Shown here: one piece after another, positions 400 through 63,865 of the stretch
Position numbering within the stretch: position 1 is the stretch's first letter
How the letters are laid out: each line of letters opens with the position of its first letter
Origin: an uncultured Fibrobacteraceae bacterium
GTDB taxonomy: Bacteria > Krumholzibacteriota > Krumholzibacteriia > LZORAL124-64-63
DNA length: 64,000 nt
Direction of reading: 5' to 3'
Assembly: GCA_964637835.1 (NCBI GenBank)
Contig: CAZWYF010000002.1
Span: forward strand, 84,614 to 148,613
Made by a program: the position numbers and the translations under genes
Notes under the pieces: generated by a model
Database searches by the model: none
What the model was told of the DNA's origin: nothing
Seen by the model: only the letters and a program-made list of their open reading frames with translations

Positions 400-405
400 G
401 AGATC

Positions 406-9465: not shown

Positions 9466-9565
9466 GTGTCGCTCCGGGCTGCTACCTACCTTTGCGCGGA
9501 CCGAAAGCCTCCGCTACCGCACGACGCTCTCCGGATGCGCCGAAACTCCACAAGGAAGGTGACTG

Positions 9566-10147: not shown

Positions 10148-10452
10148 GTTTCAAGCCTACCAGGGACCTCGCCGAGGCCGGGATCATCACCGAGGCCGGC
10201 AACGCCGCGGACTTCAAGACCGGCGACTGGCGCACCTACGTGCCGGAGTTCTACTCGGAGAACTGCATCCAGTGCATGTTCTGCTGGGTCTACTGCCCCG
10301 ACGCCGCCATCAAGGTGGACCTCAGCGGCGAGAAGCCGCAGGTGGTCGGGATCGATCTGGAGCACTGCAAGGGCTGCGGCATCTGCGCCCACGAGTGCCC
10401 GCCCGCCAAGAAGGGCAAGGCCGCCCTGGTCATGGTCCGCGAAGAGAAGTAA
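10144..10452 (+). CDS. porD: 2-oxoacid:ferredoxin oxidoreductase delta subunit (2x[4Fe-4S] ferredoxin)
   Basis: Two CxxCxxCxxxCP motifs ('CIQCMFCWVYCP', 'CKGCGICAHECP'). ATGA overlap with porC. Confidence 0.85.
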   Translation: MSFKPTRDLAEAGIITEAGNAADFKTGDWRTYVPEFYSENCIQCMFCWVYCPDAAIKVDLSGEKPQVVGIDLEHCKGCGICAHECPPAKKGKAALVMVREEK

Positions 10453-10465
10453 GGAGGCGAGGACG

Positions 10466-15221: not shown

Positions 15222-15240
15222 GCTTCGATGCATCGATCGG

Positions 15241-15274
15241 AGAGGGCGGCCCCGGGCACGGGGTCGCCCTCTTT
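15241..15274 (+). terminator. Hairpin after the CBM lipoprotein gene
   Basis: AGAGGGCG-(gccccgggcacggggt)-CGCCCTCT followed by TT. The palindrome TCGATGCATCGA lies just upstream. Confidence 0.4.
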
Positions 15275-15354
15275 CGCACCAAGGCTATCATGTCCACAGA
15301 GACCCGACACCCGCGCCGCCACCACGGCCACGACCCGTCGCTGGAGGTTCTCCC

Positions 15355-19427: not shown

Positions 19428-19499
19428 CCGCGTCGACCGTCGTGGACGGGGGGCCTGCGGGCCCCCCATCGCGCCTGGCCACCATCCGGAGGCTCCTTC

Positions 19500-21314: not shown

Positions 21315-21344
21315 TTGACGCATGTCGAACCCTATCCGTAATCT
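21315..21344 (+). promoter_or_regulatory. Second TTGACG-N18-TAATCT promoter-like element with overlapping palindrome
   Basis: TTGACG 21315-20, TAATCT 21339-44. Same spacing as the element at 14089. CGAC-tt-TGCGT-N7-ACGCA-t-GTCG inverted repeat overlaps the -35. Confidence 0.35.
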
Positions 21345-21456
21345 TCCGCGCTACGGTTCCTGCGTCCTGGGAGGAGTCCTGGACGTGCGCTGGCTGCCGC
21401 GGCTCCGGTTCGCTCCTCCCGCCCCGAGAGACCCGCTTTCCCATGGGGAGAACGAC

Positions 21457-24718: not shown

Positions 24719-25900
24719 TCAGTCCAGCCGCAGGATCCGGTCGACGAACACCTGACTTCCCGCGCGGACCCGCAGGAGGTAGACCCCGGCGGGTGCGCGC
24801 CGGCCCCCGTCCTGGCGGCCGTCCCAGCGGAGGTCATGCACGCCGGCCGGCCACGATCCCCGCGACACGCGTGCCACGCGGCGACCGCGCAGGTCGAAGA
24901 TGTCGGCCTGCACCAGCGCTGCGGCGGACAGCTCGAGACGCCAGTGGGCCGTCCCGGACGCCGGCGCCGGGCCCGCGCGCCGGAGTCGAGCCGCGGCGGC
25001 CGGCGTTCCCGCGGCCGTGGGCAACCCCACCCGCTCGGTGGCCAGCGGCGGCGCGGCGAGGTCGGTCAGGACCTGGGCGCCGGCGGCGGCATCGCCACGC
25101 AGGCGCCAGGCCAGCCAGCCCGTCACCAGGCGCCGCGTGAGGGCCTGCTGGCTCGCCGACGGCAACGTCGGCGGGCACCAGGACTCCCCACCCAGGCACG
25201 CCGGCGAGGGCTCGGCGAAACTGCAGTGTCCGCCGCCGAGCACCAGCGCCAGCGCGCGCGTGGACGAGCCGAGGGCGGTGAAGAGCGGCTGTTGATGCTC
25301 CGCTGGCGGCGTCACGCAGTCCAGCTCGCCGGCGAGGATGAGCGCCGGAGCCTGCACGTCCGGAGCCCGGCCGATCATGGAGGGACGGGGTCGTTCCTGG
25401 GGCGCGAGCAGGGCCAGAACGCCGGCCAGGGGGTCGTCCGCGGCGGCCACCACGGCGGCGCCCCCCCCGAGGCTGTGACCGACCAGGGCATGGGGGCCGG
25501 ACGACCGGGCCGGCAGATCCGCCGGCAGGTCCGGATGCCCCTGGCGCAGGGCCGAGGCCAGGAACGTCATGTCCGCGGCGAGGGCGGCCTGGTCGCCGGG
25601 CAGACCCATCTCGGTGGTCGGCAGGGCCACCAGCCAGCCGGTCCCGGCCAGGGTGTCGGCCAGGGCGGCGTAATGCTCCCAGCCCGTGAGGGTGGCGTGG
25701 GCGAGCACCACCACCGGGCAGGGGGCCGTGGCGGCGGGATCGGCCACCAGGACCGCGGTCACCGGACGATCCGGTCGCTCGGGATCGTTCAGGCCCACCG
25801 GCCACTGGCGGGGCGAGGCCATCGCCACCGCGGAGAGGAGCACGGGGAGCAGCAGGCCGACCAGGGCGGCGGCATGATGATGGCGGCGATCAGCACTCAT
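24719..25900 (-). CDS. Secreted alpha/beta-hydrolase (esterase/lipase) with a T9SS type-A tail
   Basis: Nucleophile elbow 'LVGHSLGGGAAV'. C-terminal 'ADIFDLRGRRVARVSRGSWPAGVHDLRWDGRQDGGRRAPAGVYLLRV' matches the T9SS tail shared with the other cargo. Confidence 0.75.
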   Translation of the reverse strand: MSADRRHHHAAALVGLLLPVLLSAVAMASPRQWPVGLNDPERPDRPVTAVLVADPAATAPCPVVVLAHATLTGWEHYAALADTLAGTGWLVALPTTEMGLPGDQAALAADMTFLASALRQGHPDLPADLPARSSGPHALVGHSLGGGAAVVAAADDPLAGVLALLAPQERPRPSMIGRAPDVQAPALILAGELDCVTPPAEHQQPLFTALGSSTRALALVLGGGHCSFAEPSPACLGGESWCPPTLPSASQQALTRRLVTGWLAWRLRGDAAAGAQVLTDLAAPPLATERVGLPTAAGTPAAAARLRRAGPAPASGTAHWRLELSAAALVQADIFDLRGRRVARVSRGSWPAGVHDLRWDGRQDGGRRAPAGVYLLRVRAGSQVFVDRILRLD

Positions 25901-25979
25901 GGGCGGTCACGGCGCGGGGGCGTCGCGCCGGTGGACAGGATACCCGGAATCCCGGTCGCTGTCAGCAGGCCGGTTCCTG

Positions 25980-32877: not shown

Positions 32878-32982
32878 TCGACCTCTCGTCCAGATTTCTT
32901 TGCAACCTTCCCGGTGCGATCCGTATCTTCAGATACCCCCCGCGTTGACCATGAACTCCCTGACCGCTTCAGGAGGGACATC

Positions 32983-35900
32983 ATGGCGCGCAAGCTCTTG
33001 ATCGGATGGACCCTGGCGACCCTCGCGCTGGCCGGTGCCGCGGTTGCCGACGACGGAATCATGCCGGACCAGTTGCTGGACCGGCTCACGGCCCGCTCCA
33101 TGGCCCATCAGGGCCAGGTGGCCGCCACGACCGACCTGGCCAGGGCGTCGGGCGACACCATCTACCTGCTCGGTGGCCCCGACCGCCTCGACGGCCGCTT
33201 CGAGGACGCCAACGGCCAGCCGGACTGGCACGACTGGATCACGGTGGACTTCACCGACGCCGGCATGGACAATGCCTGGCACGTCCAGGACCAGTACGTC
33301 CTCTCGGGCAGCCACTCCATGATCTGCGCCGCGGACATCCCCCAGCCCGATGGCTCGGTCTGGGGCTACGGCAACAACTGGCGCATGACCCTGCTGCAGT
33401 CCCACACCGTGGACGACCCCTCCCAGACCAGCACCCTGCGCATCACCGGTACCCTGCGCGTGGACACCGAGCCGCAGTACGACTACGTCTACCTCCAGGT
33501 CCAGAAGGCGGGTACCTGGGTGGACATCGACGCCGAGGCCGTCTGGGACGGCGTCCAGGACGTCGGCTTCGACTTCTCCACCAGCTTCCGAGCCGGCGAT
33601 TACTCCGGCTCGGGCGACGATGAGATCCGCATCCGCTTCTACTTCGCGTCCGACAGCATGGCCTCCGATCAGGACGGGGATTACGACTCCGACGGCGCCT
33701 GCCTGCTGGACGACATCACCGTGGCGATCGACGGCGCGGTGGTCGCCTTCGACGATTTCGAGGACGGCACCAGCGGCAACTGGGTCGGCGAGGTGCTGCC
33801 GGGCGCCGGCGATTTCGCGGCGCTCTACGGCAATCTCCAGGACCTCGATCCCTGCCGGAGCAACAGCTCCATCCAGGTGGCGTTCGTCGATAACGGCATC
33901 GTGGTCCCCGGTACCGGTGGCACGCCGTGCATCACCTGGTGCTACGGCCCCGAGGGCTACATCGTCAACAACACCGGCGGCCTGCTCGGCCCCGAGAACC
34001 ACGTGGAGAACGGCATCGTCTCGCCACCGCTGCGGTGGCAGGAAGGCCATGACGCGGCCGAGTTGGCGCTGAGCCTCTTCGTGCACGAGCCCATGCACTC
34101 GACCTCCGGCGGCACCATGTTCATCTGGTGGGTGCGCAGCACCACCGCCGACGACCCGGCCATGCTCGAGCATGCCGAGTGGACCAGCAACTACACCCTC
34201 TGGTACGGCTCGCCCATCTACGTCAACCATGCGGCGGATCTGACCAGCCATCTCGAGCCCGGCCGCAAGTGGTTCCAGGTGCGGCTGGAGGTCTGGGAGG
34301 CCGGCTGGATCTTCGGCGTCGAGGGTTCCGACGGTACGCCGCACCCCTACCTCGACAACGTGCGGATCCGCAGCTATCCCTCGGGCGGCCCCGCCATCTC
34401 GCACAACGAGCTCTTCCTGGCCCAGTCCAGCTTCCCCGAGCACGGCGACATCGACTTCGGCAACCTCGGGGGCAACTCCATCCGTTTCGACGCCGCGCGC
34501 AACATCAGTCCCACCGCCCACCTGCGGAACGACCCCGGCGACTCCCTCTGGGTGGACGTGGTCCCGGTGCGCGAGGGCTCGACGCTGCCCCAGCTCCCGC
34601 AGATGGTGGTGCGCATGAAGGCCAACCCGCTGTTCGACGACGTGCGGGCGCTACCGCCAGGCTTCAGCCAGGACGGCGAGGTCATCACCGGCACGGTGGT
34701 CGGCGACTCGACCTACAACGGCAACACCGGCGAGCTGGTGGCCGACCGCTACAACTTCGACCTGCCGGACACCGGCTTCTTCTACCCCGGCGACGTGATC
34801 CACTACTACTTCGAGGCCTGGGACGACCGGAACGGCGACATCGGCCACACCATGCTCCCGGCCGACACCACCGGCTTCGCCAGCTTCGCGCACGACCTCG
34901 GCTACCCCAGCGACTTCATCTGCCGGGGCCTGCCCACGCTGTTCAGCGATGCCCCCGGCGATCAGCCGAAGATCCTGCTGTGGAACGACTTCGCGGACTA
35001 CGGCGGCGAGAACGAGTGGTACCATGCGCTGTCCGGCGCTGGCCTCGTCGAGGGCGTGGACTACGACATCTACTACACCATCTCGCCGGACGCGGGCGAG
35101 GGGAACGGCCTCGGCGGCCGCGCCACCAGCGCCGTGCTCGACGGCTACGACATCCTGCTCTACACCAGCGGCACGCTGTTCGTCTACACGCTGGGCGACG
35201 GCGATTTCGCGACCGATCCCTCCCAGGACATCCAGTTGCTCAACGCCTGGTTCGCCCGCGGGGGCAAGAAGGCGTTGTTCACCGGCGACGATCTGGTGAA
35301 CGACCTGATGGACGGCGGTTCGCTCGGCCAGGCGCTCGTCAACAACTACCTGGGCGTCCAGTTCTTCGACAACTCGCTCGTCGACTACATCGGCCGCCAG
35401 ACCGCGCCCACGGTGCGCACCTACTCCGGCAACGGCTTCCTGCCCAGCGTGGGCACCTGGATCGCGTATGGCGGCTGCCTCGGCATCAACACCTTCGACG
35501 CGGTGCAGACGGTGGGTTCGGCGCAGAGCCTCGCCGAGTTCACCGACGCCAACGGCAACGGCGGCGTGTACCCCTACACCGCCGCGGTCTACAACTACAA
35601 CGAGACCACCGACACCGAGGTGATCTACCTGCCCTACGACTTCATGTTCGTCTACAATGCGCCCGGCTACGTGCCGCCCGGGGGCCTGGAGGGGCTGCCC
35701 GCCCGTGCGGTCATGCTGCGCGACATCCTCAATGCCTTCGGCCAGCAGCTCGACGGCCCCATCGGCGTGGAGGACACGCCGGCCGTGCAGGCCGTGGATG
35801 TCATGGCCTATCCCAATCCCTTCAACCCGCAGACCACCCTGGCGCTCAGCCTGCCGCGCGCCGGTCACGTGAGCGTGAAGATCTTCAACGTGCGGGGCGA

Positions 35901-36063
35901 ACTGGTCCGCACGTTGCAGGACGGAGCGCTGACCGCTGGCCGACACGAGCTGCGCTGGGACGGCCGCGACACCGACGGGTCGCGGCAGGCCTCCGGCGTC
36001 TACTTCGCCGAGACCCGCGCCCTCGGACAGACCGAGGTCACGCGCATGGCCATGATCAAGTAA
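32983..36063 (+). CDS. Large secreted protein of unknown function (1027 aa) with a T9SS type-A tail
   Basis: AGGAGGGA RBS. Signal peptide 'LLIGWTLATLALAGAAVA'. Asp/Gly/Trp/Tyr-rich beta-type body. Tail 'YPNPFNPQTTLALSLPRAGHVSVKIFNVRGELVRTL...GVYFAETR'. One HExxH-like string 'HEPMH' whose context is not convincing. Confidence 0.6.
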   Translation: MARKLLIGWTLATLALAGAAVADDGIMPDQLLDRLTARSMAHQGQVAATTDLARASGDTIYLLGGPDRLDGRFEDANGQPDWHDWITVDFTDAGMDNAWHVQDQYVLSGSHSMICAADIPQPDGSVWGYGNNWRMTLLQSHTVDDPSQTSTLRITGTLRVDTEPQYDYVYLQVQKAGTWVDIDAEAVWDGVQDVGFDFSTSFRAGDYSGSGDDEIRIRFYFASDSMASDQDGDYDSDGACLLDDITVAIDGAVVAFDDFEDGTSGNWVGEVLPGAGDFAALYGNLQDLDPCRSNSSIQVAFVDNGIVVPGTGGTPCITWCYGPEGYIVNNTGGLLGPENHVENGIVSPPLRWQEGHDAAELALSLFVHEPMHSTSGGTMFIWWVRSTTADDPAMLEHAEWTSNYTLWYGSPIYVNHAADLTSHLEPGRKWFQVRLEVWEAGWIFGVEGSDGTPHPYLDNVRIRSYPSGGPAISHNELFLAQSSFPEHGDIDFGNLGGNSIRFDAARNISPTAHLRNDPGDSLWVDVVPVREGSTLPQLPQMVVRMKANPLFDDVRALPPGFSQDGEVITGTVVGDSTYNGNTGELVADRYNFDLPDTGFFYPGDVIHYYFEAWDDRNGDIGHTMLPADTTGFASFAHDLGYPSDFICRGLPTLFSDAPGDQPKILLWNDFADYGGENEWYHALSGAGLVEGVDYDIYYTISPDAGEGNGLGGRATSAVLDGYDILLYTSGTLFVYTLGDGDFATDPSQDIQLLNAWFARGGKKALFTGDDLVNDLMDGGSLGQALVNNYLGVQFFDNSLVDYIGRQTAPTVRTYSGNGFLPSVGTWIAYGGCLGINTFDAVQTVGSAQSLAEFTDANGNGGVYPYTAAVYNYNETTDTEVIYLPYDFMFVYNAPGYVPPGGLEGLPARAVMLRDILNAFGQQLDGPIGVEDTPAVQAVDVMAYPNPFNPQTTLALSLPRAGHVSVKIFNVRGELVRTLQDGALTAGRHELRWDGRDTDGSRQASGVYFAETRALGQTEVTRMAMIK

Positions 36064-36064
36064 C

Positions 36065-36119
36065 GTCCGCCAGCGGACGCCGTCCCCCGAGGGCCCCGGG
36101 TCGTCGCGACCCGGGGCCC
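36065..36119 (+). terminator. Two perfect GC-rich hairpins immediately after the large cargo gene
   Basis: CGTCCGC-cag-GCGGACG, then GGGCCCCGGGTCG-tcg-CGACCCGGGGCCC (13-bp perfect stem). Confidence 0.45.
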
Positions 36120-36145
36120 GGTTCATGGAGCGGGCCGGGGCGCCC

Positions 36146-36186
36146 GGCGAGGCTGGCGAGCCGGGCGAGGCTGGCGAGCCGGGCGG
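36146..36186. repeat. 18-bp tandem direct repeat (2.3 copies) in a non-coding region
   Basis: GGCGAGGCTGGCGAGCCG x2 followed by GGCGGCG. Confidence 0.7.
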
Positions 36187-36821
36187 CGATGACCATGGCG
36201 GGGGGCCGAGGTCGGCCGGCACGGAAGACCTGGCGGGAGGAGATCCGGGGGGAAGAGATCCGGTGGGGGGTGTTCCGTCGGTGGTGAGCCAGGCTGGCGC
36301 CTGGAGGAGGTCGAGTCTCGTGGCCGCGAGGGTCGATCCGTCCTCCGAGGCGCTTCACCCGGTCGCAGAAGCGATCCGTTCTGTTCTGATTGTTCGCCAC
36401 CCGGGACGTTGCAAGCGGAGTGCCCGTTGCGAGTCGCCGTTCAATATTCTCAAGTCGTTCAAATACAATGACATGTGGCTGCACCGGCCGCCACCTCGCG
36501 CCGCGGGGACGCGGGGGTGTCAACGCCGTTGATACCCCCGGGGCTGAGCTTGTAACCTGCAGTGATATAATAACATGTGCGATAAACAAAGTTTCTGCCC
36601 GGAGGCCGCCCGCTGGAACCCGTTGCGAGAACGCTGATTCCAGGGCCGGCACGGCGACGGGGCCCCCCGGGGGGCCCCGTCCGCTCGCTGTCCGCTCGTT
36701 CCCTGGGATCCGGCCGCGGGGGAAAAGCCGGTGGCGGTCGCGGATCCGGCTTGTGTTACACTCGCCGGCCGTGTTTGTTCCAGCCGGTCTTCCGTCGCCC
36801 GTCCTCCGGGGAGATGCTGCC

Positions 36822-37775
36822 GTGTCCGAGCTCCGCCATGACGTCCTGCACCAGACCTGGGTGGTCCTGGCTCCCGGCCGGGGCGACCGCCCGCGGGACG
36901 TCCAGCTGCGGACCGAGCCGGCCGCCGCCGGTCCCTGCCCGTTCTGCCCCGGGCAGGAGGCGCAGACGCCTGCCGAGGTCCTGGCCACCGGCCGGCCAGA
37001 CGGCGTGCCGGCCGACCACCCGCCCTGGCGGGTGCGCGTGTTTCCCAACCGCTACCCGGCGGTGACCGGGGCGGCGGGCCGGCACGAGGTGGTGGTGCTC
37101 TCGCCCGACCACGAGCGCGGCCTGGCCGACCTCACCGGCGAGGAGGCGGCCGAGGTCCTCGCCGCGGTGCGGACGCGGATGGCGGAGCTGGAGAGACGGC
37201 CGGACCTGGCGGCGGTGACCTTCTTCCTCAACTCGGGGGCCGGCGCCGGCGCCAGCCTCAGCCATCCGCACGGGCAATTGCTGGCCACGCCGGCGGTGCC
37301 GGCGGTGCTGCGTGCCGAGCTGGGCGCCCTGGCCGCCTGGCGCCGGGACCGGGGGGAATGCCTGCTCTGCGCCGCGCCGGCAGCCGCCGACGTGGTGGCG
37401 GCCGGGCCGCTGGCCCTGGCGTTCGCCCCCCGGGCGAGCCGCTTCGCCTGGGAGACCCTGCTGATGCCGCGACGCCACGAGGCGCGCTTCACCGCCGCCA
37501 CCGACGCGGAGCTCGGCGCGGTGGCCAGCCTGCTGGTCCAGCTGGCGGCCGCGCTGCGCGTCGCGGCCGGTGATCCCGCTTACAATCTGGTCTTGCACAC
37601 CGCCCCGCCCGGGAGCGAGGATTTCCACTGGCACCTGGAGCTGATGCCGCGGCTGGCGCCGCTGGCCGGCTTCGAGGCGGGCACGGGGTTCTTCATCAAC
37701 CCGGTGGATCCGTCCCGGGCCGCCGCCGCCCTGCGGGCCCAGCTACCCGCGACCCCAGCGAGGACCGACCCATGA
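36822..37775 (+). CDS. GalT-like HIT-family nucleotidyltransferase (galactose-1-phosphate uridylyltransferase / ADP-glucose phosphorylase family)
   Basis: Zn-site 'CPFCPGQE'. Active-site 'SHPHGQLLATP' (HxHxQ). 'RVRVFPNRYPAV'. GTG start at 36822 after CCGGGGAG. ATGA overlap with glgA. The in-frame upstream extension to 36390 looks like non-coding translation. Confidence 0.7.
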   Translation: MSELRHDVLHQTWVVLAPGRGDRPRDVQLRTEPAAAGPCPFCPGQEAQTPAEVLATGRPDGVPADHPPWRVRVFPNRYPAVTGAAGRHEVVVLSPDHERGLADLTGEEAAEVLAAVRTRMAELERRPDLAAVTFFLNSGAGAGASLSHPHGQLLATPAVPAVLRAELGALAAWRRDRGECLLCAAPAAADVVAAGPLALAFAPRASRFAWETLLMPRRHEARFTAATDAELGAVASLLVQLAAALRVAAGDPAYNLVLHTAPPGSEDFHWHLELMPRLAPLAGFEAGTGFFINPVDPSRAAAALRAQLPATPARTDP

Positions 37776-39247
37776 GGATCCTGATGATCACCGCGGAGAT
37801 GGCGCCGCTGGTGAAGATCGGCGGCCTGGCCGACGTCACCGGGGCGCTGCCGGCCGCCCTGGCCGCCCACGGCCACGAGGTGCGGGTGGTGCTGCCGCTC
37901 TACGGCCATCTCGATCGCCGGGCGCAGGACCTGCAACCGCGCCCGGAGACCGGGCCGTTGCCCCTGCGCGTGGGGCAGGCCGTGCACACGGTACGCTTCT
38001 GGTCCTGGCCGGCGGCCCCGGCGGGGGTCCAGGTGGACCTGGTGGAGTGCCGGGACCTGTTCGGTCGTCCCGGGGTCTATGCCGATCCCGCAGGCGCGGT
38101 GTTCGGCGACACGCTCGAGCGGGCCAGCTGCCTCTGCGCCGCGGCCCTGGCCCTGCCCGAGCTGCTCGACTGGCCGGTGGACGTGGTCCACGCCCACGAC
38201 GTGCACGCCGCGCTGGCCCCCCACTACCGCGCCCACTGGTACGCCGGCCGCGAGCTGCCCGGCCCGGCGGCCACCATGCTGACCATCCACAACCTGGCCC
38301 ACCAGCAGCTCGAGCCGGCGGGCGCCATCGTCCGCGTGGGGCTGCCCCGCGAGCTGGCCGAGTATCCCGGTCCCTTCGAGTTCCACGGCCACTGCAACCT
38401 GCTGAAGGCCGGCATCCTGGCCGCCGACCACGTCAACACCGTCAGCCCCACCTACGCGCGGGAGGTGGTGGCCGACGCCACCGCCGGCTGTGGCCTGCAC
38501 GGCGTGCTCGCCGCGCGCGGCGAGGCCTTCGACGGCATCGTCAACGGTGTGGACACCCGCACCTGGGACCCCTCGCGCGACCGCCACCTGCCGGCGCGCT
38601 ACCACGCCCAGGACCTGGTGGGCAAGTCCGTCTGCCGGTCGCGACTGCTCCGTGACGCCGGCCTGGAGGAGGATCAGCGCCCGCTGCTGGGCGTGGTCAG
38701 CCGCCTGGTGCCGCAGAAGGGCATCGACCTGGTGTGCGACCTGCTGGATCGCCTGGTGGACGGGGGCTTCTCCCTGCTGGTCCTGGGGACGGGCGACGCG
38801 CCCCTGCACGAGCAGCTCGCCGCCGCGGCGGCCCGGCATCCGGGGCGGGTGGCCTTCCGTCCGGAGTTCAGCGAGTCGTGGGCCCATCGCATCTACGCCG
38901 GCAGCGACCTCTTCCTCATGCCCAGCCGCTTCGAGCCCTGCGGCCTGGGCCAGCTCTACGCCCTGCGCTACGGGACCTTGCCCGTGGTGCGCCGCACCGG
39001 CGGCCTGGCCGACACCATCGCCGACGTCGACACCGCCGGTGGCACCGGCTTCGTGTTCGACGAGCCCACGCCCGACGCCCTCTGGCAGGCCCTGGTGCGC
39101 GCCCGCGCCACCCGGGAGGACACCGTCCGCTGGCGCGCCATGCAGCGCCGCGGCATGCAGCGCGACGTCTCCTGGGAGATCAGCGCCGCCGCCTACGCCG
39201 CGCGCTACCGCCGGCTGGTCCCCGTCGCCGCGGAGGTGGCGCCATGA
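37772..39247 (+). CDS. glgA: Glycogen synthase (ADP-glucose type, GT5)
   Basis: 'MRILMITAEMAPLVKIGGLADVTGALP' canonical GlgA N-terminus. C-terminal 'SRFEPCGL' block. Confidence 0.92.
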   Translation: MRILMITAEMAPLVKIGGLADVTGALPAALAAHGHEVRVVLPLYGHLDRRAQDLQPRPETGPLPLRVGQAVHTVRFWSWPAAPAGVQVDLVECRDLFGRPGVYADPAGAVFGDTLERASCLCAAALALPELLDWPVDVVHAHDVHAALAPHYRAHWYAGRELPGPAATMLTIHNLAHQQLEPAGAIVRVGLPRELAEYPGPFEFHGHCNLLKAGILAADHVNTVSPTYAREVVADATAGCGLHGVLAARGEAFDGIVNGVDTRTWDPSRDRHLPARYHAQDLVGKSVCRSRLLRDAGLEEDQRPLLGVVSRLVPQKGIDLVCDLLDRLVDGGFSLLVLGTGDAPLHEQLAAAAARHPGRVAFRPEFSESWAHRIYAGSDLFLMPSRFEPCGLGQLYALRYGTLPVVRRTGGLADTIADVDTAGGTGFVFDEPTPDALWQALVRARATREDTVRWRAMQRRGMQRDVSWEISAAAYAARYRRLVPVAAEVAP

Positions 39248-40998
39248 ATGATCCCGTGACCCTCGATGAGCTCGCCCACCGCAGCCTGGCCGCCACCCAG
39301 ACGCCCCTGCTGGTGGTGGACGCCCGCTGGCGCGTGCTCCTGGCCAGCACCGGCGCCGGCCGTCTCTACGCCGAGGAGCCGGCGGACCTGGTGGGCCGAT
39401 CCCTGGAGGAGCTGGTCACCAGCACCGACCCGTTCGCAGGGTGCGACGACCCCGGCTGTCCCGACCGCGGGTGCGTCCGGCAGCTGGACCTGTGCGTGGG
39501 CGACGCCACCGTGGCCGCCGAGCTGCAGTGCGAGGCCTTCCGCGACGGCCAGGGACGGCTCCATCGCCTCCTGCTGATCCACGACGCCAGCGAGCTGGCC
39601 GCCCGCGACGCCATGCGTGCCGCCCGCCTGGCCAAGCTCAACCTGCTGAACCAGGTCTCGGAGGCCCTGTACGGCGCGCAGCTCTCCTTGCCCCAGGTGC
39701 TCGAGTCGGTGCTCATCGCCATGACCGCCGGCCAGGGCCTGCGCTTCAACCGCGCCTTCCTGCTGCTGGTGGACGAGCGCACCCGTTGCTTGCGCGGGGA
39801 GATCGCCATCGGCCCGAGCAGCCGCGAGGAGGCCGAGCGCATCTGGCGCGACCTGGCCGATCAGCCCACCGACCTCTACGAGATGATGACCAGCTACGAC
39901 CTCTCCCTCCGGGAGACCGACGTGGCGGTCAACAACATCGTCCGGCAGCTCTCCGTCTCCCTGGACGAGGGCCAGCACGTGCTCATCCGCGCGCTGCACG
40001 GTCGCCGCACGGTCCTGGTCACCGAGACCGACGACGGTCCGGGCACCGCCGACGTCCGTCGCTGGCTCGGCGTGGGCCGCTTCGCCGTGGCGCCCCTGGC
40101 CACCCGCCGCGGCGCCATCGGCGTGCTCATCGCCGACAATGCCATCAGCGGGCTGGAGATCACGGAGATGGACCTGGAGTTCCTCCAGCTCTTCGCCAAC
40201 CAGTCGGCCAACGCCATCGAGTCCTCCCGGCTGACCGAGGAGCTGGCGCGCAAGGTCCTGGACCTGCGCAAGGCCCAGCAGAAGCAGAAGGAGGACCAGC
40301 AGACCCTGCTGCGCATGGAGCGCCTGTCGGTCATGGGCGAGACCTCGGCCATCGTGGCCCACGAGCTGCGCAATCCCCTGGTGGCCATCGGCGGTTTCGC
40401 CCGGGCGCTGCTGCGCAGCCTGGAGGAGGACGACGCCAACCGGCAATACGCCCAGATCATCTCCGAGGAGGTGGCGCGCCTCGAGCGCATCATCCACGAC
40501 CTCCTCGACTTCATCCGGCCCCAGAAGATGATGCGTCGCAGCGTGGCTCCGGATACCATCGTGCAAGAAGTGGCACGAAAGATGCAGCCGACCCTGGACC
40601 ACGGGTCGGTGGCACTGCACCTCGACCTGCGGGCCGGGCCGGCGGAGGTCCACTGCCATCCCGGCGAGATCCAGCAGGTACTGCAGAACCTGGTGTTGAA
40701 CGCCGTCCAGGCCCAGCCGGACGGCGGGCGCATCCGCCTGGCGAGCCGGTCGCTCGAGGGCGGCGTGCTCATCCAGGTGGCGGATGACGGACCGGGGCTG
40801 GCCAGGGACGTGGCGGACAAGATGTTCTCGCCGTTCTTCACCACCAAGTCCGCGGGCTCGGGTCTGGGACTGACCATCTGCGCCCAGATCATCAAGGCCC
40901 ACGGCGGGGTGCTGCGGGGCGAGAACCTCGCCGACGGCGGCGCCAGCTTCAGCTTCATCCTGCCGCGACCAAAGCTGGAACCCGACCAGGGCGAGTAG
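39244..40998 (+). CDS. Cytoplasmic sensor histidine kinase (Cys-rich PAS-like region, GAF, HisKA, HATPase_c) embedded in the glycogen operon
   Basis: ATGA overlap with the glgA stop. No TM segment. 'FAGCDDPGCPDRGCVRQLDLCVGD...LQC' (5 Cys within 33 aa). GAF 'GRFAVAPLATRRGAIGVLIADN'. H-box 'VAHELRNPLVAIGGFARAL'. G-boxes 'VADDGPGL', 'GSGLGLTIC'. Confidence 0.85.
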   Translation: MNDPVTLDELAHRSLAATQTPLLVVDARWRVLLASTGAGRLYAEEPADLVGRSLEELVTSTDPFAGCDDPGCPDRGCVRQLDLCVGDATVAAELQCEAFRDGQGRLHRLLLIHDASELAARDAMRAARLAKLNLLNQVSEALYGAQLSLPQVLESVLIAMTAGQGLRFNRAFLLLVDERTRCLRGEIAIGPSSREEAERIWRDLADQPTDLYEMMTSYDLSLRETDVAVNNIVRQLSVSLDEGQHVLIRALHGRRTVLVTETDDGPGTADVRRWLGVGRFAVAPLATRRGAIGVLIADNAISGLEITEMDLEFLQLFANQSANAIESSRLTEELARKVLDLRKAQQKQKEDQQTLLRMERLSVMGETSAIVAHELRNPLVAIGGFARALLRSLEEDDANRQYAQIISEEVARLERIIHDLLDFIRPQKMMRRSVAPDTIVQEVARKMQPTLDHGSVALHLDLRAGPAEVHCHPGEIQQVLQNLVLNAVQAQPDGGRIRLASRSLEGGVLIQVADDGPGLARDVADKMFSPFFTTKSAGSGLGLTICAQIIKAHGGVLRGENLADGGASFSFILPRPKLEPDQGE

Positions 40999-41076
40999 AG
41001 TTTTCCTGGAACCGCAGCCGGCCATTTGCTAGCCTGCGAGTGGAGATCCTGGAACCCGCACGAAGGAGGGTGTTCC

Positions 41077-41445
41077 ATGGCCAAGGTCCTCATCGTCGAC
41101 GACGAACCGCATCTGCGCCTGCTCTACGAGACGGAACTCCGTCGAGCCGGCTACGAGACCATGACCGCGAGCAATGCCGAGCAGGGACTCGAGTACGTCC
41201 AGACCATGCAGCCGGATCTGGTGATCCTGGACATCCGCATGGCGGGGATGGATGGAATTGAGGCCTTGCAAAGGATCCTGGATATGGATAATACCATACC
41301 GGTGATCCTGAACACCGCCTACTCGAGCTATCGCGAGAACTACCTCACCTGGTCGGCCGACGCGTACATCACCAAGTCGTCGGATACCACGGCCCTGCTC
41401 GAGAAGGTCAAGGAACTGCTGCACGCGAAGACGGTCGAGAACTGA
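41077..41445 (+). CDS. Single-domain response regulator (REC only)
   Basis: GAAGGAGGG RBS. 'VLIVDDEPH', 'LVILDIRMAGMDG', 'VILNTAYS', 'YITKSS'. Confidence 0.85.
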   Translation: MAKVLIVDDEPHLRLLYETELRRAGYETMTASNAEQGLEYVQTMQPDLVILDIRMAGMDGIEALQRILDMDNTIPVILNTAYSSYRENYLTWSADAYITKSSDTTALLEKVKELLHAKTVEN

Positions 41446-41468
41446 GCCCGGGTTCCGGCCTCGCGTGG

Positions 41469-42755
41469 ATGGCGAGCCCGCGGGCGCCGGGAGCATGGCC
41501 GGTGGATATTCTCGAACGCATACGTCGCACGCTGACCATCGTCCTGGCCGGCGGGCAGGGCGAACGCCTGTACCCGCTGACCAAGGACCGTTCCAAGCCC
41601 TCGGTCCCCTTCGGCGGGAACTACCGCATCATCGATTTCACCCTGTCCAACTGCTTCAACTCGGGCCTGCGGCGCATCTACGTGCTGACCCAGTACAAGA
41701 GCTACAGCCTGGACAAGCACCTGCAGCGCGGCTGGAACATCTTCAACTACGAGGCGGACGAGTTCCTCTACCGTATCCCCCCGCAGCATCGCGTGGGCAC
41801 CAAGTGGTACGAGGGCACCGCCGACGCCATCTACCACAACATCTATCTGCTGGAGAAGGACAAGCCGGAGCACGTCCTGGTCCTCTCGGGCGACCACGTC
41901 TACAAGATGGACTACGGGGACTTCATGACCTTCCACCTCGGCCACGGCGCGCCCTTCTCCCTGTGCGCGGCGGTGGTTCCCCGCGAGGGCGCCCATCACT
42001 TCGGCATCCTCGAGGTGGACGAGGACTGGCGGGTGATCGGCTACGAGGAGAAGCCGCCCAACCCCAAGACCATCCCCGGCGATCCCGAGCACTGCCTGGT
42101 CAACATGGGTGTCTACCTGGTGGACACCGAGTGCCTGGTCAAGGAGCTCTGCCACGACTCGCGGCGTACCGACAGCCACCACGATTTCGGCAAGAACATC
42201 ATCCCGCGGCTGGTCCAGCACGGCGAGGTCTTCGCCTACCCGTTCCGTGACGCCGGGAGTCGCGAACCCCTCTACTGGCGCGACATCGGGACCCTGGACA
42301 GCTTCTATGCGGCCGCCATGGACCTGCTCTCGCGCCGGCCGCCCCTGGACCTCTACGACCGCGACTGGCCGTTCCGGGCCTGGCAGCCGCCGGTCCCCCC
42401 GGCCAAGTCGGTGCACAGCTTCAACGAGGACGAGCCGCAACCCGGCATCCTGGCCAACTCCATCATCGGCGGCGGCTCGATCATCTCCGGCGCCCGCGTC
42501 GAGAAGTCCATCCTGCACCGCGGCGTGAAGGTGAACTCCTACGCCAAGGTCTCCGGGAGCATCCTCATGGACGGCGTGCAGGTGGGCCGTTACGCCGACC
42601 TGCACCGGGTGATCTGCGACAAGGACGTGGTGATCCCCGAGGGGCTGGTGATCGGCCGCGACCTGGAGCAGGACCGCGAGCTGTTCACCGTCACCCAGGA
42701 CGGTATCGTGGTGATCCCCAAGGAGATGGACCTCTCCGGCCTCGGCGGCGGTTGA
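41469..42755 (+). CDS. glgC: Glucose-1-phosphate adenylyltransferase
   Basis: 'IVLAGGQGERLYPLTKDRSKPSVPFGGNYRIIDFTLSNCFNSGLRRIYVLTQYKSYSL'. C-terminal left-handed beta-helix 'GGGSIISGARVEKSILHRGVKV'. Alternative GTG start at 41502. Confidence 0.92.
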   Translation: MASPRAPGAWPVDILERIRRTLTIVLAGGQGERLYPLTKDRSKPSVPFGGNYRIIDFTLSNCFNSGLRRIYVLTQYKSYSLDKHLQRGWNIFNYEADEFLYRIPPQHRVGTKWYEGTADAIYHNIYLLEKDKPEHVLVLSGDHVYKMDYGDFMTFHLGHGAPFSLCAAVVPREGAHHFGILEVDEDWRVIGYEEKPPNPKTIPGDPEHCLVNMGVYLVDTECLVKELCHDSRRTDSHHDFGKNIIPRLVQHGEVFAYPFRDAGSREPLYWRDIGTLDSFYAAAMDLLSRRPPLDLYDRDWPFRAWQPPVPPAKSVHSFNEDEPQPGILANSIIGGGSIISGARVEKSILHRGVKVNSYAKVSGSILMDGVQVGRYADLHRVICDKDVVIPEGLVIGRDLEQDRELFTVTQDGIVVIPKEMDLSGLGGG

Positions 42756-42855
42756 CCGCGGGCCCCGGCGGGATCACATTGTCCAGCGATCATCGTCCAG
42801 CATCCGGGGCAGCCAGGCGGCTGCCCCGCCCGGACCCCCGCGATCCCGAGGCCCC

Positions 42856-43263
42856 ATGACCGATCGACAGAATCCCCGCGACCGCGCTGGCCAGGGCGCC
42901 GACGAGTTCGACCTCACGGCGTCCGAGGTGGAGATCGCCCTGATCTGCCTGCGCTTCTTCCGTGGCGACTGGGACATGTACCTGGACTACCTCCAGGGTT
43001 CACGCGTCACGCCCGAACAGCGTCGCCGCGACCTGCCGCTGGTCGAATCCCTCCGCGACCGCGACCGCCGGACCGAGTTCCTCACCGCCTTCCTCGAGGA
43101 CGAGGTGGTGGCCCTGGCCCAGCGGCTCGGCTTCGACCAGCTCCTGAGGATCTGGGAGCACGCCCTCGAGCTCGACCCCGAGTCCGAGCCGTTTCCCGAG
43201 TTCCACGGCGAGGGCGCGGCCGAGGACGACGGGGGGGACGATGCGCCGACGACGTTGCACTGA
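42856..43263 (+). CDS. Hypothetical acidic protein (135 aa), possibly the last gene of the glg operon
   Basis: No recognisable motifs. C-terminus 'EGAAEDDGGDDAPTTLH'. Same strand, 100 bp after glgC. Confidence 0.4.
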   Translation: MTDRQNPRDRAGQGADEFDLTASEVEIALICLRFFRGDWDMYLDYLQGSRVTPEQRRRDLPLVESLRDRDRRTEFLTAFLEDEVVALAQRLGFDQLLRIWEHALELDPESEPFPEFHGEGAAEDDGGDDAPTTLH

Positions 43264-43395
43264 GGCGGTGGGGTGAGGGGCCATGGTGGCGAAGGTCCTC
43301 GCGAAGGGTGGGCCTGGACGGCCCACCCTTCTGCTGCGGAGTTTCGCCATCAGGACGGAGCGACCCTACCCCCCAGGCGAGCGCCGGGAGCCGGA

Positions 43396-44187
43396 TCAGA
43401 GGACGTAGAACTCCGGCCGGCGATCGGCGAGGAGGTGATTGCGCGGCGTGATCCGGTGGTCGCAGAGGGCGAGGTCGAGCTCGGCGACGGCGGCCTCGGG
43501 ACGATCCTCGCTGCCGAGGACCAGGCGCTCGGCGGTGGGCGCGCAGATGGTGCTGCGACCGATGAAGTCCAGGGCCTCGGCGGTGCGGTGCTCGCGGCCG
43601 ACGCGATTGGCGGTCAGGGTGAAGACGCGGTTCTCCAGGGCGCGGATGCGCATGGCGTCCGGGCAGTGGGGCAGCACCAGGTTCGAGGGGTGGGCGACCA
43701 CGCGGGCACCGCGGCGGCCCAGGGTGCCGGCGGCCTCGGGGAACTGCCAGTCGAAGCAGATCATCAGGCCCACGGTGGTGCCGCAGGCCGCGAACACGGG
43801 CAGGCCCAGGTCGCCCGGGTCGAAGACCAGCTTCTCGTCCCAGAACAGGTGGAGCTTGCGGTAACGGTCGATGCGGCCATCGGGCTGGACCAGGACGGCG
43901 CTGTTGTAGAGGCGCTGGCCGTGGGCCTCGGCCAGGCCGGCCACCAGGGTGGTGCCGGTGCGCGCGGCGTGGTCGCGGAGCGCCGCGCAGCTGGGGCCAT
44001 CGGGGATGGGCTCGGCCAGTCGCTTCAGTTCCTCGCGATCGCGGAACTGGTAGCCGGTGGCGCAGAGCTCCGGCAGGACGGCCAGGTCGCAATGGTCGGG
44101 CACCAGGGCGAGGGCGGCCGCCAGGTTGGCGGCGGGCTCGCCGAAGACGGGGTCGGTCTGGATCACGGCGGCACGCAGGACGGTCAT
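43396..44187 (-). CDS. Carbon-nitrogen hydrolase (nitrilase superfamily)
   Basis: Catalytic triad blocks 'VLPELCATGY' (Glu), 'YRKLHLF' (Lys), 'GLMICFDWQFPE' (Cys). ATG at 44187 with GGAGGAG RBS. 4-bp overlap with the upstream GT4 gene. Confidence 0.8.
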   Translation of the reverse strand: MTVLRAAVIQTDPVFGEPAANLAAALALVPDHCDLAVLPELCATGYQFRDREELKRLAEPIPDGPSCAALRDHAARTGTTLVAGLAEAHGQRLYNSAVLVQPDGRIDRYRKLHLFWDEKLVFDPGDLGLPVFAACGTTVGLMICFDWQFPEAAGTLGRRGARVVAHPSNLVLPHCPDAMRIRALENRVFTLTANRVGREHRTAEALDFIGRSTICAPTAERLVLGSEDRPEAAVAELDLALCDHRITPRNHLLADRRPEFYVL

Positions 44188-45335: not shown

Positions 45336-45479
45336 TCCGGGCTACTCACCTTTTGTTTTTGATAAAGGCGTGCGGGCGTGCTTACTTTAGCCCCGATCGG
45401 CAGTCGGGGAAAGGCGCGGCCCAGGCATCAGCTGCCGCGACCCGCTCCCTTCCGGACCCAACCCCGGTGGAGGTTCCCG

Positions 45480-47210
45480 TTGGCTACCCAGGATCTGGTC
45501 GTCAGGATCGGCGGCGAGGGTGGCGAGGGCGTCATTTCCTGTGGCGAAATCCTGTCGAAGGCGGTGGCGCGTGGAGGTCTCAACATCCACGCGTTTCGCA
45601 CGTTTCCGGCGGAGATTCGCGGTGGTCTGGCCATGTTCCAGCTGCGTGGCAGCGATGGACCGGCCCGGTCGCTCAAGCAGTCGGTGGACGTTCTCTGCGC
45701 CATCAACCACAACGCATACGACGCCTATGTCAGCAACATCAGGGAAGACGGGTTCCTGGTCTACGACCCCGCCTTCGTCAAGCTGGACGACCGCCTCGGC
45801 AGCCGGCTGCGGCTCGAACTGCCCCTCGACGCGATCTCCAGGGAGGTCACCGAGTCGAGCCGCTCGAAGAACATGGTGGCCATGGGCGCCTTGCTCTTCG
45901 TCTTCGGCACACCGCTGGACTACGGCAAGACGCTGATCAAGGACCACTTCGGCAAGAAGGGCGACGCGGTGGTGCGGAGCAACCACGCCGCCGTGGAAGC
46001 GGGCTACCGCTTCGCCGAGCAGAACCTGGCCCAGTTGCAGAAGCCGTTCGAGCGGCAGCCCGAACGCGACCACATCCTGGTCTCGGGCAACGAGGCCGTG
46101 GCCCTCGGCGCCATCGCGGCCAAGGTGGACTTCGTGCCCGGTTATCCCATCACGCCGGCCACACCCATCTTCGAGTTCCTCTGCCGCGAGTTGCCCCGCT
46201 TCGGCGGCAGAGCGGTGCAGTTCGAGGACGAGATCGCCTCGCTCGCCGCCGGCATCGGCGCCAGCTTCGCCGGCGAGCGCGTGCTGACGGCCACGAGCGG
46301 GCCGGGCCTGTCGCTGATGAGCGAGACGCTGAACCTCGCGGCCATGACCGAGTGCCCCATCACCATCGTCAACGTGATGCGTGGCGGCCCGAGCACCGGC
46401 CTGCCCACCAAGACCGAGCAGTCGGATCTGAAGTTCGCCATCTACGGCACCAGTGGCGAGTCGCCGCGGTGCATCATGGCGCCGCTGGACATCTACGACT
46501 GCTTCTGGCAGACGGTCCGCGCGGTGCGCATCGCCGAGAAGTACCAGATCCCGGTGATCCTGCTGACGGACCAGGCCCTGGCCTACACCAGCCAGAACAT
46601 CCCCACCCCGGACCTCTCGGGTGTGGAGCTGGGTGAGCGCCTGGTGCCCGGACCGGAGGCCACGCGAGAGAACTTCAAGCGCTACGCCATCACCGACACG
46701 GGCATCAGCCCCATGCCGGTACCCGGCGTGCACGATCTGCCGTACATGTGCACCGGCCTGGAGCACACCGAGACCGGCGCGCCCAACTACACGCCGCAGA
46801 ACCACGAGGCCATGACCGAGAAGCGCTTCCGCAAGCTGAAGGCCCTCGGCAAGCGCATCGTGCAGCAGACGCAGGTGGAGGAGGACGAGTCGGAGGGCAC
46901 CGAGGTGGGCGTGATCGGCTGGGGCAGCACCTACGGCGCCATCTGCGAGGCCCTCGAGCAGATCGAGGCCGACACCGGCGTCCGGGTGGCGCACCTGCAC
47001 CCGCGCATCCTCTCGCCGCTCAACGAGTGGCGCATCCGCCAGTTCCTCGGCCCGCTGCGCAAGCTGATCGTGCCCGAGGAGAACTACACCGGTCAGTACG
47101 CGCACTTCCTCAAGGGCAAGTTCGGCATCAAGCCCATCGAGATCCACAAGGCGCATGGCGTGCCGTTCACCTCCGAGGAACTCTACGCCGCCATCCGGGA
47201 GGAGCTGTGA
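45480..47210 (+). CDS. korA: 2-oxoacid:ferredoxin oxidoreductase, fused gamma-alpha subunit (KorA-type)
   Basis: N-terminal gamma-domain 'LVVRIGGEGGEGVISCGEIL' then alpha-domain. TTG 45480 preceded by GGTGGAGG. The track ORF begins at 45378 but has no better start. Substrate (2-oxoglutarate vs other) cannot be told from sequence. Confidence 0.8.
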   Translation: MATQDLVVRIGGEGGEGVISCGEILSKAVARGGLNIHAFRTFPAEIRGGLAMFQLRGSDGPARSLKQSVDVLCAINHNAYDAYVSNIREDGFLVYDPAFVKLDDRLGSRLRLELPLDAISREVTESSRSKNMVAMGALLFVFGTPLDYGKTLIKDHFGKKGDAVVRSNHAAVEAGYRFAEQNLAQLQKPFERQPERDHILVSGNEAVALGAIAAKVDFVPGYPITPATPIFEFLCRELPRFGGRAVQFEDEIASLAAGIGASFAGERVLTATSGPGLSLMSETLNLAAMTECPITIVNVMRGGPSTGLPTKTEQSDLKFAIYGTSGESPRCIMAPLDIYDCFWQTVRAVRIAEKYQIPVILLTDQALAYTSQNIPTPDLSGVELGERLVPGPEATRENFKRYAITDTGISPMPVPGVHDLPYMCTGLEHTETGAPNYTPQNHEAMTEKRFRKLKALGKRIVQQTQVEEDESEGTEVGVIGWGSTYGAICEALEQIEADTGVRVAHLHPRILSPLNEWRIRQFLGPLRKLIVPEENYTGQYAHFLKGKFGIKPIEIHKAHGVPFTSEELYAAIREEL

Positions 47211-63841: not shown

Positions 63842-63865
63842 CGGCAGGATCGCCTCCGTGGCAGC

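Follow-up and report, generated by a model that had tools for sequence, protein, structure and literature searches.

What does an enzyme of the galactose-1-phosphate uridylyltransferase (GalT) type do at the head of a group of genes for glycogen synthesis? The question is raised by a gene for a GalT-like protein in a 64,000-nt stretch of DNA from an uncultured Fibrobacteraceae bacterium (GTDB lineage Krumholzibacteriota; assembly GCA_964637835.1, contig CAZWYF010000002.1). We refer to this whole 64-kb stretch, which has a G+C content of ~71%, as the window, and positions are given in its numbering unless another locus is named (Table 1). On the basis of its sequence and of a structural model, we hold with moderate confidence that the protein is a zinc-containing HIT nucleotidyltransferase of the type of the plant protein At5g18200, that is, an ADP-glucose phosphorylase (EC 2.7.7.36) which would hold the ADP-glucose pool low.

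Family placement of the GalT-like protein

The open reading frame (ORF) starts with GTG at 36822 and ends with a TGA stop at 37773-37775, and GGGGAG lies 9 nt 5′ of the start. This start site is backed by homologues opening with MSELRHD at the equal position, as well as by an identical start region in L082, a relative that is 80% identical. The nearest homologues of the protein are found in Candidatus Krumholzibacteria metagenome bins. Pfam matches were obtained to GalP_UDP_transf in the N-terminal part (residues 82-160, 3e-13), to HIT (residues 189-277, 1.5e-8) and to DUF4921 (3e-11). The two HIT-like half-domains predicted in one chain, from these matches and from the model, assign the protein to the GalT branch of the HIT superfamily.

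The GalT zinc knuckle CPFCPG and the active-site motif HPHGQ, to which the initial annotation had pointed, are both present. His148, His150 and Gln152 are invariant among 21 family members and also in At5g18200, the E. coli GalT (EcGalT) and the P. aerophilum GalT (PaGalT). In the alignment, Cys39, Cys42, His97 and His148 correspond to C52, C55, H115 and H164 of EcGalT and are predicted to bind a structural zinc; His150 is the predicted nucleophile that accepts the nucleotidyl group, and Gln152 would stabilise the transferred phosphate. The residue roles in EcGalT, in class I GalTs and in At5g18200 are given in bioRxiv 10.64898/2026.09.13.751320. The second CxxC of the window protein (C180, C183) is probably a second structural metal site.

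When the protein was compared with the sequences in the PDB, the top match was At5g18200 (1z84/2h39) with 161 bits (E 5.8e-46), compared with 111 bits for PaGalT and 55 bits for EcGalT. The AlphaFold2 model, built on 21 homologues and with a pLDDT of 91.4, had its best structural match in 2H39, the ADP-glucose complex of At5g18200 (TM score 0.87, root-mean-square deviation (rmsd) 2.8 Å); the match to PaGalT gave a TM score of 0.75 with an rmsd of 7.3 Å, and those to the E. coli and human GalTs gave TM scores of 0.73-0.80. The top Foldseek matches of the model were all class I GalT-fold proteins. A neighbour-joining (NJ) tree was then calculated from 205 sequences, including 119 database homologues, 80 proteins from the related loci described below, one fusion protein, At5g18200 and three GalTs verified by experiment, of which the human GALT sequence was taken from a PDB alignment. 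In this tree the E. coli, human and P. aerophilum GalTs were separated from the window protein, At5g18200 and all bacterial relatives with 94% bootstrap, and At5g18200 was placed with the GalTs in just 8% of bootstrap replicates.

A difference in one motif points in the same direction. The C-terminal segment that lines the hexose pocket in EcGalT (structure 1GUP) reads AGFEAGTGFFINPV in the window protein and is similar to GGFEIGTGCYINPV of At5g18200, unlike AGAELGASLFTLD of PaGalT and VGYEMLAETQRD of EcGalT. The pattern G-F-E-x-G-T-G-x-x-I-N-P is common to the window protein and At5g18200 and is absent from the verified GalTs compared, and the EcGalT-type segment K-F-x-V-G-Y-E-x-L-x-x-x-Q-R-D does not occur in the window protein, which has AGFEAGTGFFINPV in its place. 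Within the segment, A282, G283, F284, E285 and G289 are invariant among the 21 aligned family sequences. The DUF4921 profile likewise scored 43 bits with the window protein and 54 bits with At5g18200, with no match to PaGalT or EcGalT, whereas the zinc ligands and H-x-H-x-Q are common to all proteins compared.

Thus the window protein shares with At5g18200 (PDB 1Z84, 1ZWJ, 2H39) the two-lobed HIT/GalT fold, HxHxQ, the CxxC/His zinc site, the second CxxC, the GFExGTGxxINP segment, the DUF4921 signature and the clade. It differs in setting, since At5g18200 is a stand-alone eukaryotic gene and the window gene stands first in a bacterial glycogen operon, with translational coupling to glgA. With the class I GalTs (E. 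coli 1HXP, human 5IN3, P. aerophilum 6K5Z) it shares the branch of the superfamily, the fold, His-x-His-x-Gln and the zinc ligands, and with PaGalT the second CxxC as well, but those enzymes form a separate clade and have another hexose-pocket motif, and the context of the window gene is glycogen rather than galK/galE. Bit scores, fold, pocket motif, DUF4921 and tree therefore favour in silico what the initial annotation had put forward as a candidate, an ADP-glucose phosphorylase, and by these measures the protein stands closer to At5g18200, in the same clade, than to the verified GalTs.

Operon structure and recurrence in glycogen gene clusters

The GalT-like gene is followed by glgA, a GAF histidine kinase gene, a gene for a single-domain response regulator, glgC and a 135-aa ORF, which together make up an operon of five to six genes. 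Since 758 bp of non-coding sequence lie 5′ of the GalT-like gene, this gene heads the operon, and its stop codon overlaps the ATG of glgA (37772-37774) as ATGA, so that both the head position and the coupling to glgA seen by the initial annotation hold. The end of glgA overlaps the kinase start in the same manner (ATGA at 39244-39247), and 23 nt separate the regulator gene from glgC. Co-directional and closely spaced, the ADP-glucose-type glgA and glgC form a glycogen (GlgC-GlgA) operon. The kinase is read as cytoplasmic because no hydrophobic segment was seen at its N-terminus by inspection, without a transmembrane predictor. As had also been stated, the gene does not lie beside galK or galE: tblastn with E. 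coli proteins and a Pfam survey showed no galK, galM or second galT within the window, and the sole GalE-like match there is a generic short-chain dehydrogenase/reductase (62840-63865, minus strand) adjoining a UDP-glucose dehydrogenase and a DegT aminotransferase.

The arrangement is retained among close relatives. In a Krumholzibacteria genome with a 63%-identical protein, all six genes keep their order and their 4-nt overlaps, and L001 and L008 retain the six-gene order too, with differing small intergenic gaps (tblastn). Translational coupling of the GalT-like gene to glgA was also found in L083. The 135-aa ORF is kept after glgC in L001 (72% identity) and L008 (57%), and in L083 as a 140-aa gene without a Pfam match. 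The conserved block just 5′ of the GalT-like start codon is probably the promoter or the 5′ leader of the operon. A sigma-70 scan of 36000-43400 gave no promoter match, and a TGaTATAAT sequence found by eye near 36566 was dropped as a promoter because it is not conserved in L082. An Rfam search of 35900-37000 returned nothing above threshold, only miRNA and lncRNA noise.

When one genome per GTDB species was scanned, at least 597 species proved to have a relative of the gene; the best 80 loci were analysed, and the counts below refer to these. These loci come from Acidobacteriota, Planctomycetota, Elusimicrobiota, Desulfobacterota (Geobacter), Myxococcota, Aminicenantes, Zixibacteria, Eisenbacteria, WOR-3, Omnitrophota, Bacteroidota, Firmicutes-labelled bins and others. 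When the ORFs were clustered, glgA, glgC or a gene of glycoside hydrolase family 57 (GH57) was present within 6 kb in 44 of the 80 loci and within 300 bp in 39; a single-copy gene would be found within 6 kb by chance in ~0.3% of loci. The GH57 families counted, by Pfam, were the AmyA/4-alpha-glucanotransferase-like family, a second GH57 family and the GH57 branching enzyme. With tblastn under coverage and score thresholds, at least one partner (glgA, glgC, GH57, or an orthologous kinase or regulator) was found in 48 loci from more than 10 phyla. The direct neighbour (≤300 bp) was glgA in ~21 loci, a GH57 enzyme in ~18 and glgC in 2. An operon holding both glgC and the GalT-like gene occurs in the window as well as in 14 loci. 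Homologues of galK, galE and galM were found near the gene in none of the 80. Other glucan genes are scarce in these clusters: the glycosyltransferase family 35 (GT35) phosphorylase occurred in 2 (weak matches), GH13 GlgB in 1 and GlgX in 0. Both E. coli glgBXCAP and the window operon combine glgC with a cotranscribed glgA of the ADP-glucose type. GH13 branching enzyme, GlgX and GT35 phosphorylase, however, are missing from the window operon, which instead has a HIT-family enzyme and a two-component system embedded in it; related clusters make use of GH57 enzymes.

A different arrangement, in which cysS-bioA-yraN (UPF0102) are followed by the GalT-like gene with no glycogen genes nearby, was seen in Terriglobia and other Acidobacteriota (L014, L017, L021, L030, L046, L048, L051, L053, L054, L056, L060, L062, L076, L077, L080). 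Some of these proteins are, by distance, closer to At5g18200 than any other bacterial relatives. A different role is possible for this subset. Tandem duplicates of the GalT-like gene were observed in L043 and L057, and two GalT-like modules lie in a single chain in P0121 (871 aa) and P0122 (599 aa).

Natural fusions were identified when 1.84 billion cluster representatives were searched with a profile, and 3,872 relatives (50%-identity clusters) were obtained at E ≤ 1e-30. In P0141, a protein of 814 aa, a complete GlgA (residues 2-437) is joined to a complete GalT-like domain (478-809); its cluster, assigned to Coprothermobacterota, has 19 members, and at least 9 of them are full-length copies of 814 aa found in independent assemblies. 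Fusions of GH57 to a GalT-like domain also recur (P0155 and P0227, 858-875 aa), and the catalytic motifs are retained in all fusions examined. A GH57 branching enzyme and an 832-aa fusion of a GlgC-like NTP-transferase with phosphoglucomutase are encoded near the GlgA fusion on a contig of 86 kb. That GlgA and a GalT-like domain are fused argues strongly that one metabolite, either ADP-glucose or ADP, is common to the HIT enzyme and glycogen synthase.

The kinase and the regulator recur as well. Orthologues were counted by direct tblastn with score thresholds. Those of the window regulator were found in 17 of the 80 loci, in distant phyla, beside the GalT-like gene, glgC or both; they score 80-229 bits with 39-91% identity and are mostly 117-135 aa long, compared with ≤55 bits for unrelated receivers in the same loci. 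The GAF kinase has orthologues in 10 loci, other phyla included. Loci with either orthologue include L007, L011, L012, L019, L047, L055, L058 and L073. The gene order GalT-like, glgA, kinase, regulator, glgC of the window is repeated in L001, L008 and L083. In L012, L047 and L073 two GH57 genes, a GH57 branching enzyme gene, glgC, kinase and regulator precede the GalT-like gene, which in L012 and L073 is followed by glgA on the opposite strand and with which L047 stops. L019 (Scalindua) has GalT-like gene, kinase, regulator and glgC, and L011 (Geobacter) has kinase, regulator and glgC, then after a gap GH57, GalT-like gene and glgA. Since the regulator has its receiver residues but no output domain, protein binding would be its mode of action. 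No two-component system devoted to a glycogen cluster seems to have been described so far.

Predicted reaction and competing explanations

The substrates, the direction and the regulation that we infer are as follows. The reaction would be of the ping-pong type, in which His150 attacks the alpha-phosphate of ADP-glucose, glucose-1-phosphate (G1P) leaves, and the adenylyl-enzyme then hands AMP to orthophosphate (Pi) to give ADP. The context, comprising an ADP-glucose-type glgA, glgC and the GlgA fusion, fits ADP-glucose as the predicted substrate. Cellular Pi is far above G1P, and by our own estimate from equilibrium constants, the equilibrium concentration of ADP-glucose would be about micromolar or below. 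Flux would thus run toward phosphorolysis, and the most likely job of the enzyme would be to keep the ADP-glucose pool low and phosphate-dependent. ADP-glucose, whether supplied by GlgC or by GlgA in reverse, would be returned to G1P and ADP, with the adenylate not lost to AMP. The stop/start overlap would keep the GalT-like protein in fixed proportion to glycogen synthase, and the embedded kinase and regulator could plausibly set the timing of the ADP-glucose drain.

In this role the enzyme would be an energy-conserving analogue of the brake provided in E. coli by AspP (ASPP), the Nudix ADP-sugar pyrophosphatase known to act negatively on the bacterial ADP-glucose pool; the role proposed here, removal of ADP-glucose that limits glycogen synthesis, is the one that AspP has. 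AspP is of unrelated fold and hydrolyses ADP-glucose to AMP and G1P, in contrast to the phosphorolysis to ADP and G1P predicted here, and it is not known to lie in the glg operon. At5g18200 converts ADP-glucose to ADP and G1P by phosphorolysis with a Km of ~7 µM, compared with 160 µM for E. coli ASPP (PMC4136846). The initial annotation had suggested that the enzyme recycles ADP-glucose in opposition to GlgC, as a futile cycle. A phosphate-dependent drain fits this suggestion, but the cycle would not be a pure loss: GlgC and the HIT enzyme sum to ATP + Pi -> ADP + pyrophosphate (PPi), an anhydride bond is thereby conserved, and a futile cycle is only one way of reading the pair.

Several points weigh against an ADP-glucose phosphorylase acting as a brake. 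PaGalT, a true uridylyltransferase, is 37% identical to the window protein and At5g18200 is ~30-33% identical, and the NJ distances are 1.25 and 1.40, respectively; with a verified GalT about as identical, specificity could have changed within the superfamily. The closeness of PaGalT is probably in part a result of the Ala/Arg/Pro-rich composition that goes with a 71% GC genome, and we have based the family placement on profile scores, fold, motifs and bootstrap, not on raw identity or NJ distance. Of this clade, no member other than At5g18200, at that level of identity, is characterised, and the deep nodes of the bacterial clade are without bootstrap support in what is an NJ tree with only three outgroup sequences. 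The curated hidden Markov model (HMM) cut-offs were tried as a discriminator between GalT and ADP-glucose phosphorylase and rejected: the window protein scores below the GalT equivalog cut-offs (TIGR00209, 60.3 vs 102.1; PRK11720, 84.6 vs 448), but At5g18200 itself passes TIGR00209 (107 vs 102), so the cut-offs do not separate the two activities. Approximately 40% of the related loci, notably in Terriglobia, have no glycogen genes nearby. Finally, it is odd for a simple brake that a synthase using ADP-glucose is co-expressed with, or even fused to, an enzyme that destroys it.

In another explanation, the enzyme would work together with GlgA running in reverse (glycogen + ADP -> ADP-glucose), the two being equivalent to a glycogen phosphorylase with ADP recycled as a cofactor; where G1P is abundant and phosphate low, the same pair could build glycogen without ATP. 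The prevalence of glgA over glgC as the direct neighbour agrees with such a pair, as do the coupling to glgA in the window and L083, the real and recurrent GlgA-GalT-like fusions, and the near absence of GT35 phosphorylase, GlgX and GH13 GlgB from GH57-type clusters; by our own estimate, moreover, phosphorolysis at cellular Pi/G1P ratios would hold ADP-glucose in the micromolar range or lower, which would suffice for drawing the synthase backwards, given the 7 µM Km of the plant enzyme. We nevertheless consider this explanation unlikely: we found no experimental precedent here for physiological reversal of GlgA, a GT35 phosphorylase may be encoded outside the clusters that were scanned, glgC in the same operon argues for ordinary ATP-driven synthesis, and net ATP-free synthesis needs a Pi/G1P ratio below ~4, which is rarely met in cells. 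In its widest form, which we likewise regard as doubtful, the HIT enzyme would contribute half of a hitherto unrecognised, ADP-catalysed connection of glycogen with G1P, with GlgA reversed, replacing GT35 in GH57-type clusters and possibly performing ATP + Pi -> ADP + PPi together with GlgC; storage and mobilisation would be switched by the kinase and regulator, kept in at least six phyla, through protein contact and not transcription. If the partner were GlgC instead, G1P and ATP would give ADP-glucose and PPi, phosphorolysis would follow, and the PPi would be supplied to PPi-dependent glycolytic enzymes. Many of the carriers are anaerobes, of phyla in which such enzymes are common, and glgC shares the operon with the HIT gene in the window and the 14 loci counted above. 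Glycogen cycling with equal stoichiometry (1 PPi and 1 ADP per ATP and Pi) has been proposed as a PPi source for some anaerobes, but in C. thermocellum a knockout of ADP-glucose synthase left growth unaffected, and glycogen cycling is not a major PPi source there (PMC8863071). With no PPi-dependent enzyme in the window (Pfam survey) or recurring near the gene in the 80 loci, and with the gene tied far more tightly to GlgA and GH57 than to GlgC, we judge PPi supply to be quite improbable.

The remaining explanations concern the substrates themselves. An ordinary GalT of the Leloir pathway (EC 2.7.7.12), as most databases label the relatives, with the adjacency to glgA incidental, would account for the class I GalT fold and catalytic motif and for the identity to PaGalT, which is about as high as that to At5g18200. 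This is very unlikely, as the protein is split from the three verified GalTs with the bootstrap given above, its hexose-pocket motif differs, galK and galM are missing from the window and galK, galE and galM from the vicinity of the gene in all 80 loci, and the recurrent linkage and fusions to glgA and GH57 cannot be incidental; the scores below both NCBIfam GalT cut-offs are a weak test, in view of the score of At5g18200. A same-fold nucleotidyl transferase with another donor or acceptor, catalysing ADP-glucose/sugar-1-phosphate exchange, phosphorolysis of UDP- or GDP-glucose, or adenylyl transfer to another phosphate, has a small probability in our estimation. At5g18200 is reported to accept various phosphates (McCoy et al., 2006), and a sizeable share of the family lies outside glycogen contexts. 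The branch also spans GalT, ADP-glucose phosphorylase and Ap4A phosphorylase (bioRxiv 10.64898/2026.09.13.751320). Against it, the context is specific for ADP-glucose, with glgC and an ADP-glucose-type glgA, and the pocket motif is conserved with At5g18200. We retain ADP-glucose phosphorolysis that keeps the pool low as the preferred explanation.

Surrounding features and meaning of the finding

Features of the window outside the operon are listed in Table 1 together with those of the operon. The ~110-nt non-coding element 3′ of the gene for the 1049-aa protein is also present in L082 (9472-9587, 92% identical), L083 (6358-6473, 81%) and L001 (~1575-1682), with less conserved surroundings. In RNAalifold, it folds into a 30-pair hairpin, 8 pairs of which show compensatory changes among 4 sequences, followed by a short hairpin and a U-rich terminator-like tail. 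It had no Rfam match, and may be a small RNA or form a structured 3′ end. Since L083 has an extra gene between the element and the GalT-like gene, the element probably does not belong to the glg operon. An intergenic tandem repeat of the 18-bp unit GGCGAGGCTGGCGAGCCG at 36125-36185 (plus strand) is absent from the otherwise alignable L082 region.

Table 1. Positions of the GalT-like gene, its operon and other features (window numbering; last row, positions on L085)
Feature	Position	Strand	Remarks
1012-aa HisKA-HATPase + GAF + HD_5 (HD-GYP-like) protein	400-3438	+	unusual kinase/phosphohydrolase hybrid
Papain-like protease with beta-helix	6237-9401		FlgD_ig / type IX secretion system (T9SS)-type C-terminal sorting domain
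2-oxoacid:ferredoxin oxidoreductase gene sets, two separate	9563-11659 and 45378-47210	+	
Pullulanase	15184-18807		FlgD_ig / T9SS-type C-terminal sorting domain
GH13 alpha-amylase	19428-21164		after pullulanase
Alkaline phosphatase	21319-23202		FlgD_ig / T9SS-type C-terminal sorting domain
Alpha/beta hydrolase	24719-25906	-	FlgD_ig / T9SS-type C-terminal sorting domain
1049-aa protein, function unknown	32914-36063		FlgD_ig / T9SS-type C-terminal sorting domain
Conserved non-coding element, ~110 nt	36288-36395	+	3′ of the 1049-aa FlgD_ig protein gene
Conserved block	36707-36788	+	just 5′ of the start codon; 90% identical in L082, flanks diverge
GalT-fold HIT protein, candidate ADP-glucose:phosphate adenylyltransferase (ADP-glucose phosphorylase)	36822-37775	+	317 aa
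CPFCPG, residues 39-44	36936-36953	+	near-invariant among 21 aligned sequences
SHPHGQ, residues 147-152	37260-37277	+	H148, H150, Q152 align with EcGalT H164, H166, Q168
Second CxxC (C180, C183)	37359-37370	+	also in At5g18200 and PaGalT, not in EcGalT
Hexose-pocket segment AGFEAGTGFFINPV, residues 282-295	37665-37706	+	At5g18200-type
glgA, ADP-glucose-type glycogen synthase	37772-39247	+	TIGR02095 498 bits, cut-off 328
Sensor histidine kinase, PAS-GAF-HisKA-HATPase	39244-40998	+	start overlaps glgA stop
Single-domain response regulator, receiver only, 122 aa	41077-41445	+	D8/D9, D51, T79, K101 present
glgC, glucose-1-phosphate adenylyltransferase	41469-42755	+	NF001947 532 bits, cut-off 470
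Acidic 135-aa protein closing the operon	42856-43263	+	without Pfam or NCBIfam match
Fusion-protein ORFs on L085	1601-4099 and 10001-12445		

The five proteins with the FlgD_ig / T9SS-type sorting domain are all large, predicted secreted enzymes. With a predicted secreted pullulanase and a GH13 alpha-amylase near the glycogen operon, the organism probably feeds on external alpha-glucans. The two 2-oxoacid:ferredoxin oxidoreductase gene sets are consistent with a predicted anaerobic, ferredoxin-based metabolism. Like the HD_5-containing hybrid of the window, two HD_5 proteins were also observed near the GlgA fusion in L085.

The crystal structure and the reaction of ADP-glucose phosphorylase have been known since 2006. 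The enzyme family and the plant reaction are thus not new; what is new is a bacterial member in an undescribed operon setting. In the open-access literature we found no paper describing the bacterial members, their setting in glycogen clusters, the fusions or the two-component system; an account in a subscription journal is possible. The term 'ADP-glucose phosphorylase', among the literature matches, is mostly a misnomer for GlgC/AGPase. The accessible portion of a 2024 survey of prokaryotic alpha-glucan enzymes mentions no GalT- or HIT-type enzyme (PMC11046441). The physiological function of At5g18200, a cytosolic protein, is described as unknown (PMC4136846), and a 2024 plant review still describes it so (PMC11066809).

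The recurrent and sometimes fused homologues in glycogen clusters, often with a two-component system of their own, place this orphan enzyme in a defined pathway, and genetically tractable bacterial systems are available in which its role can be tested. Additionally, the names 'galactose-1-phosphate uridylyltransferase' and 'DUF4921' are probably misannotations in thousands of database entries, as the 3,872 clusters of relatives indicate. For the bacteria that carry it, the enzyme points to an unexplored layer of control on the ADP-glucose pool.

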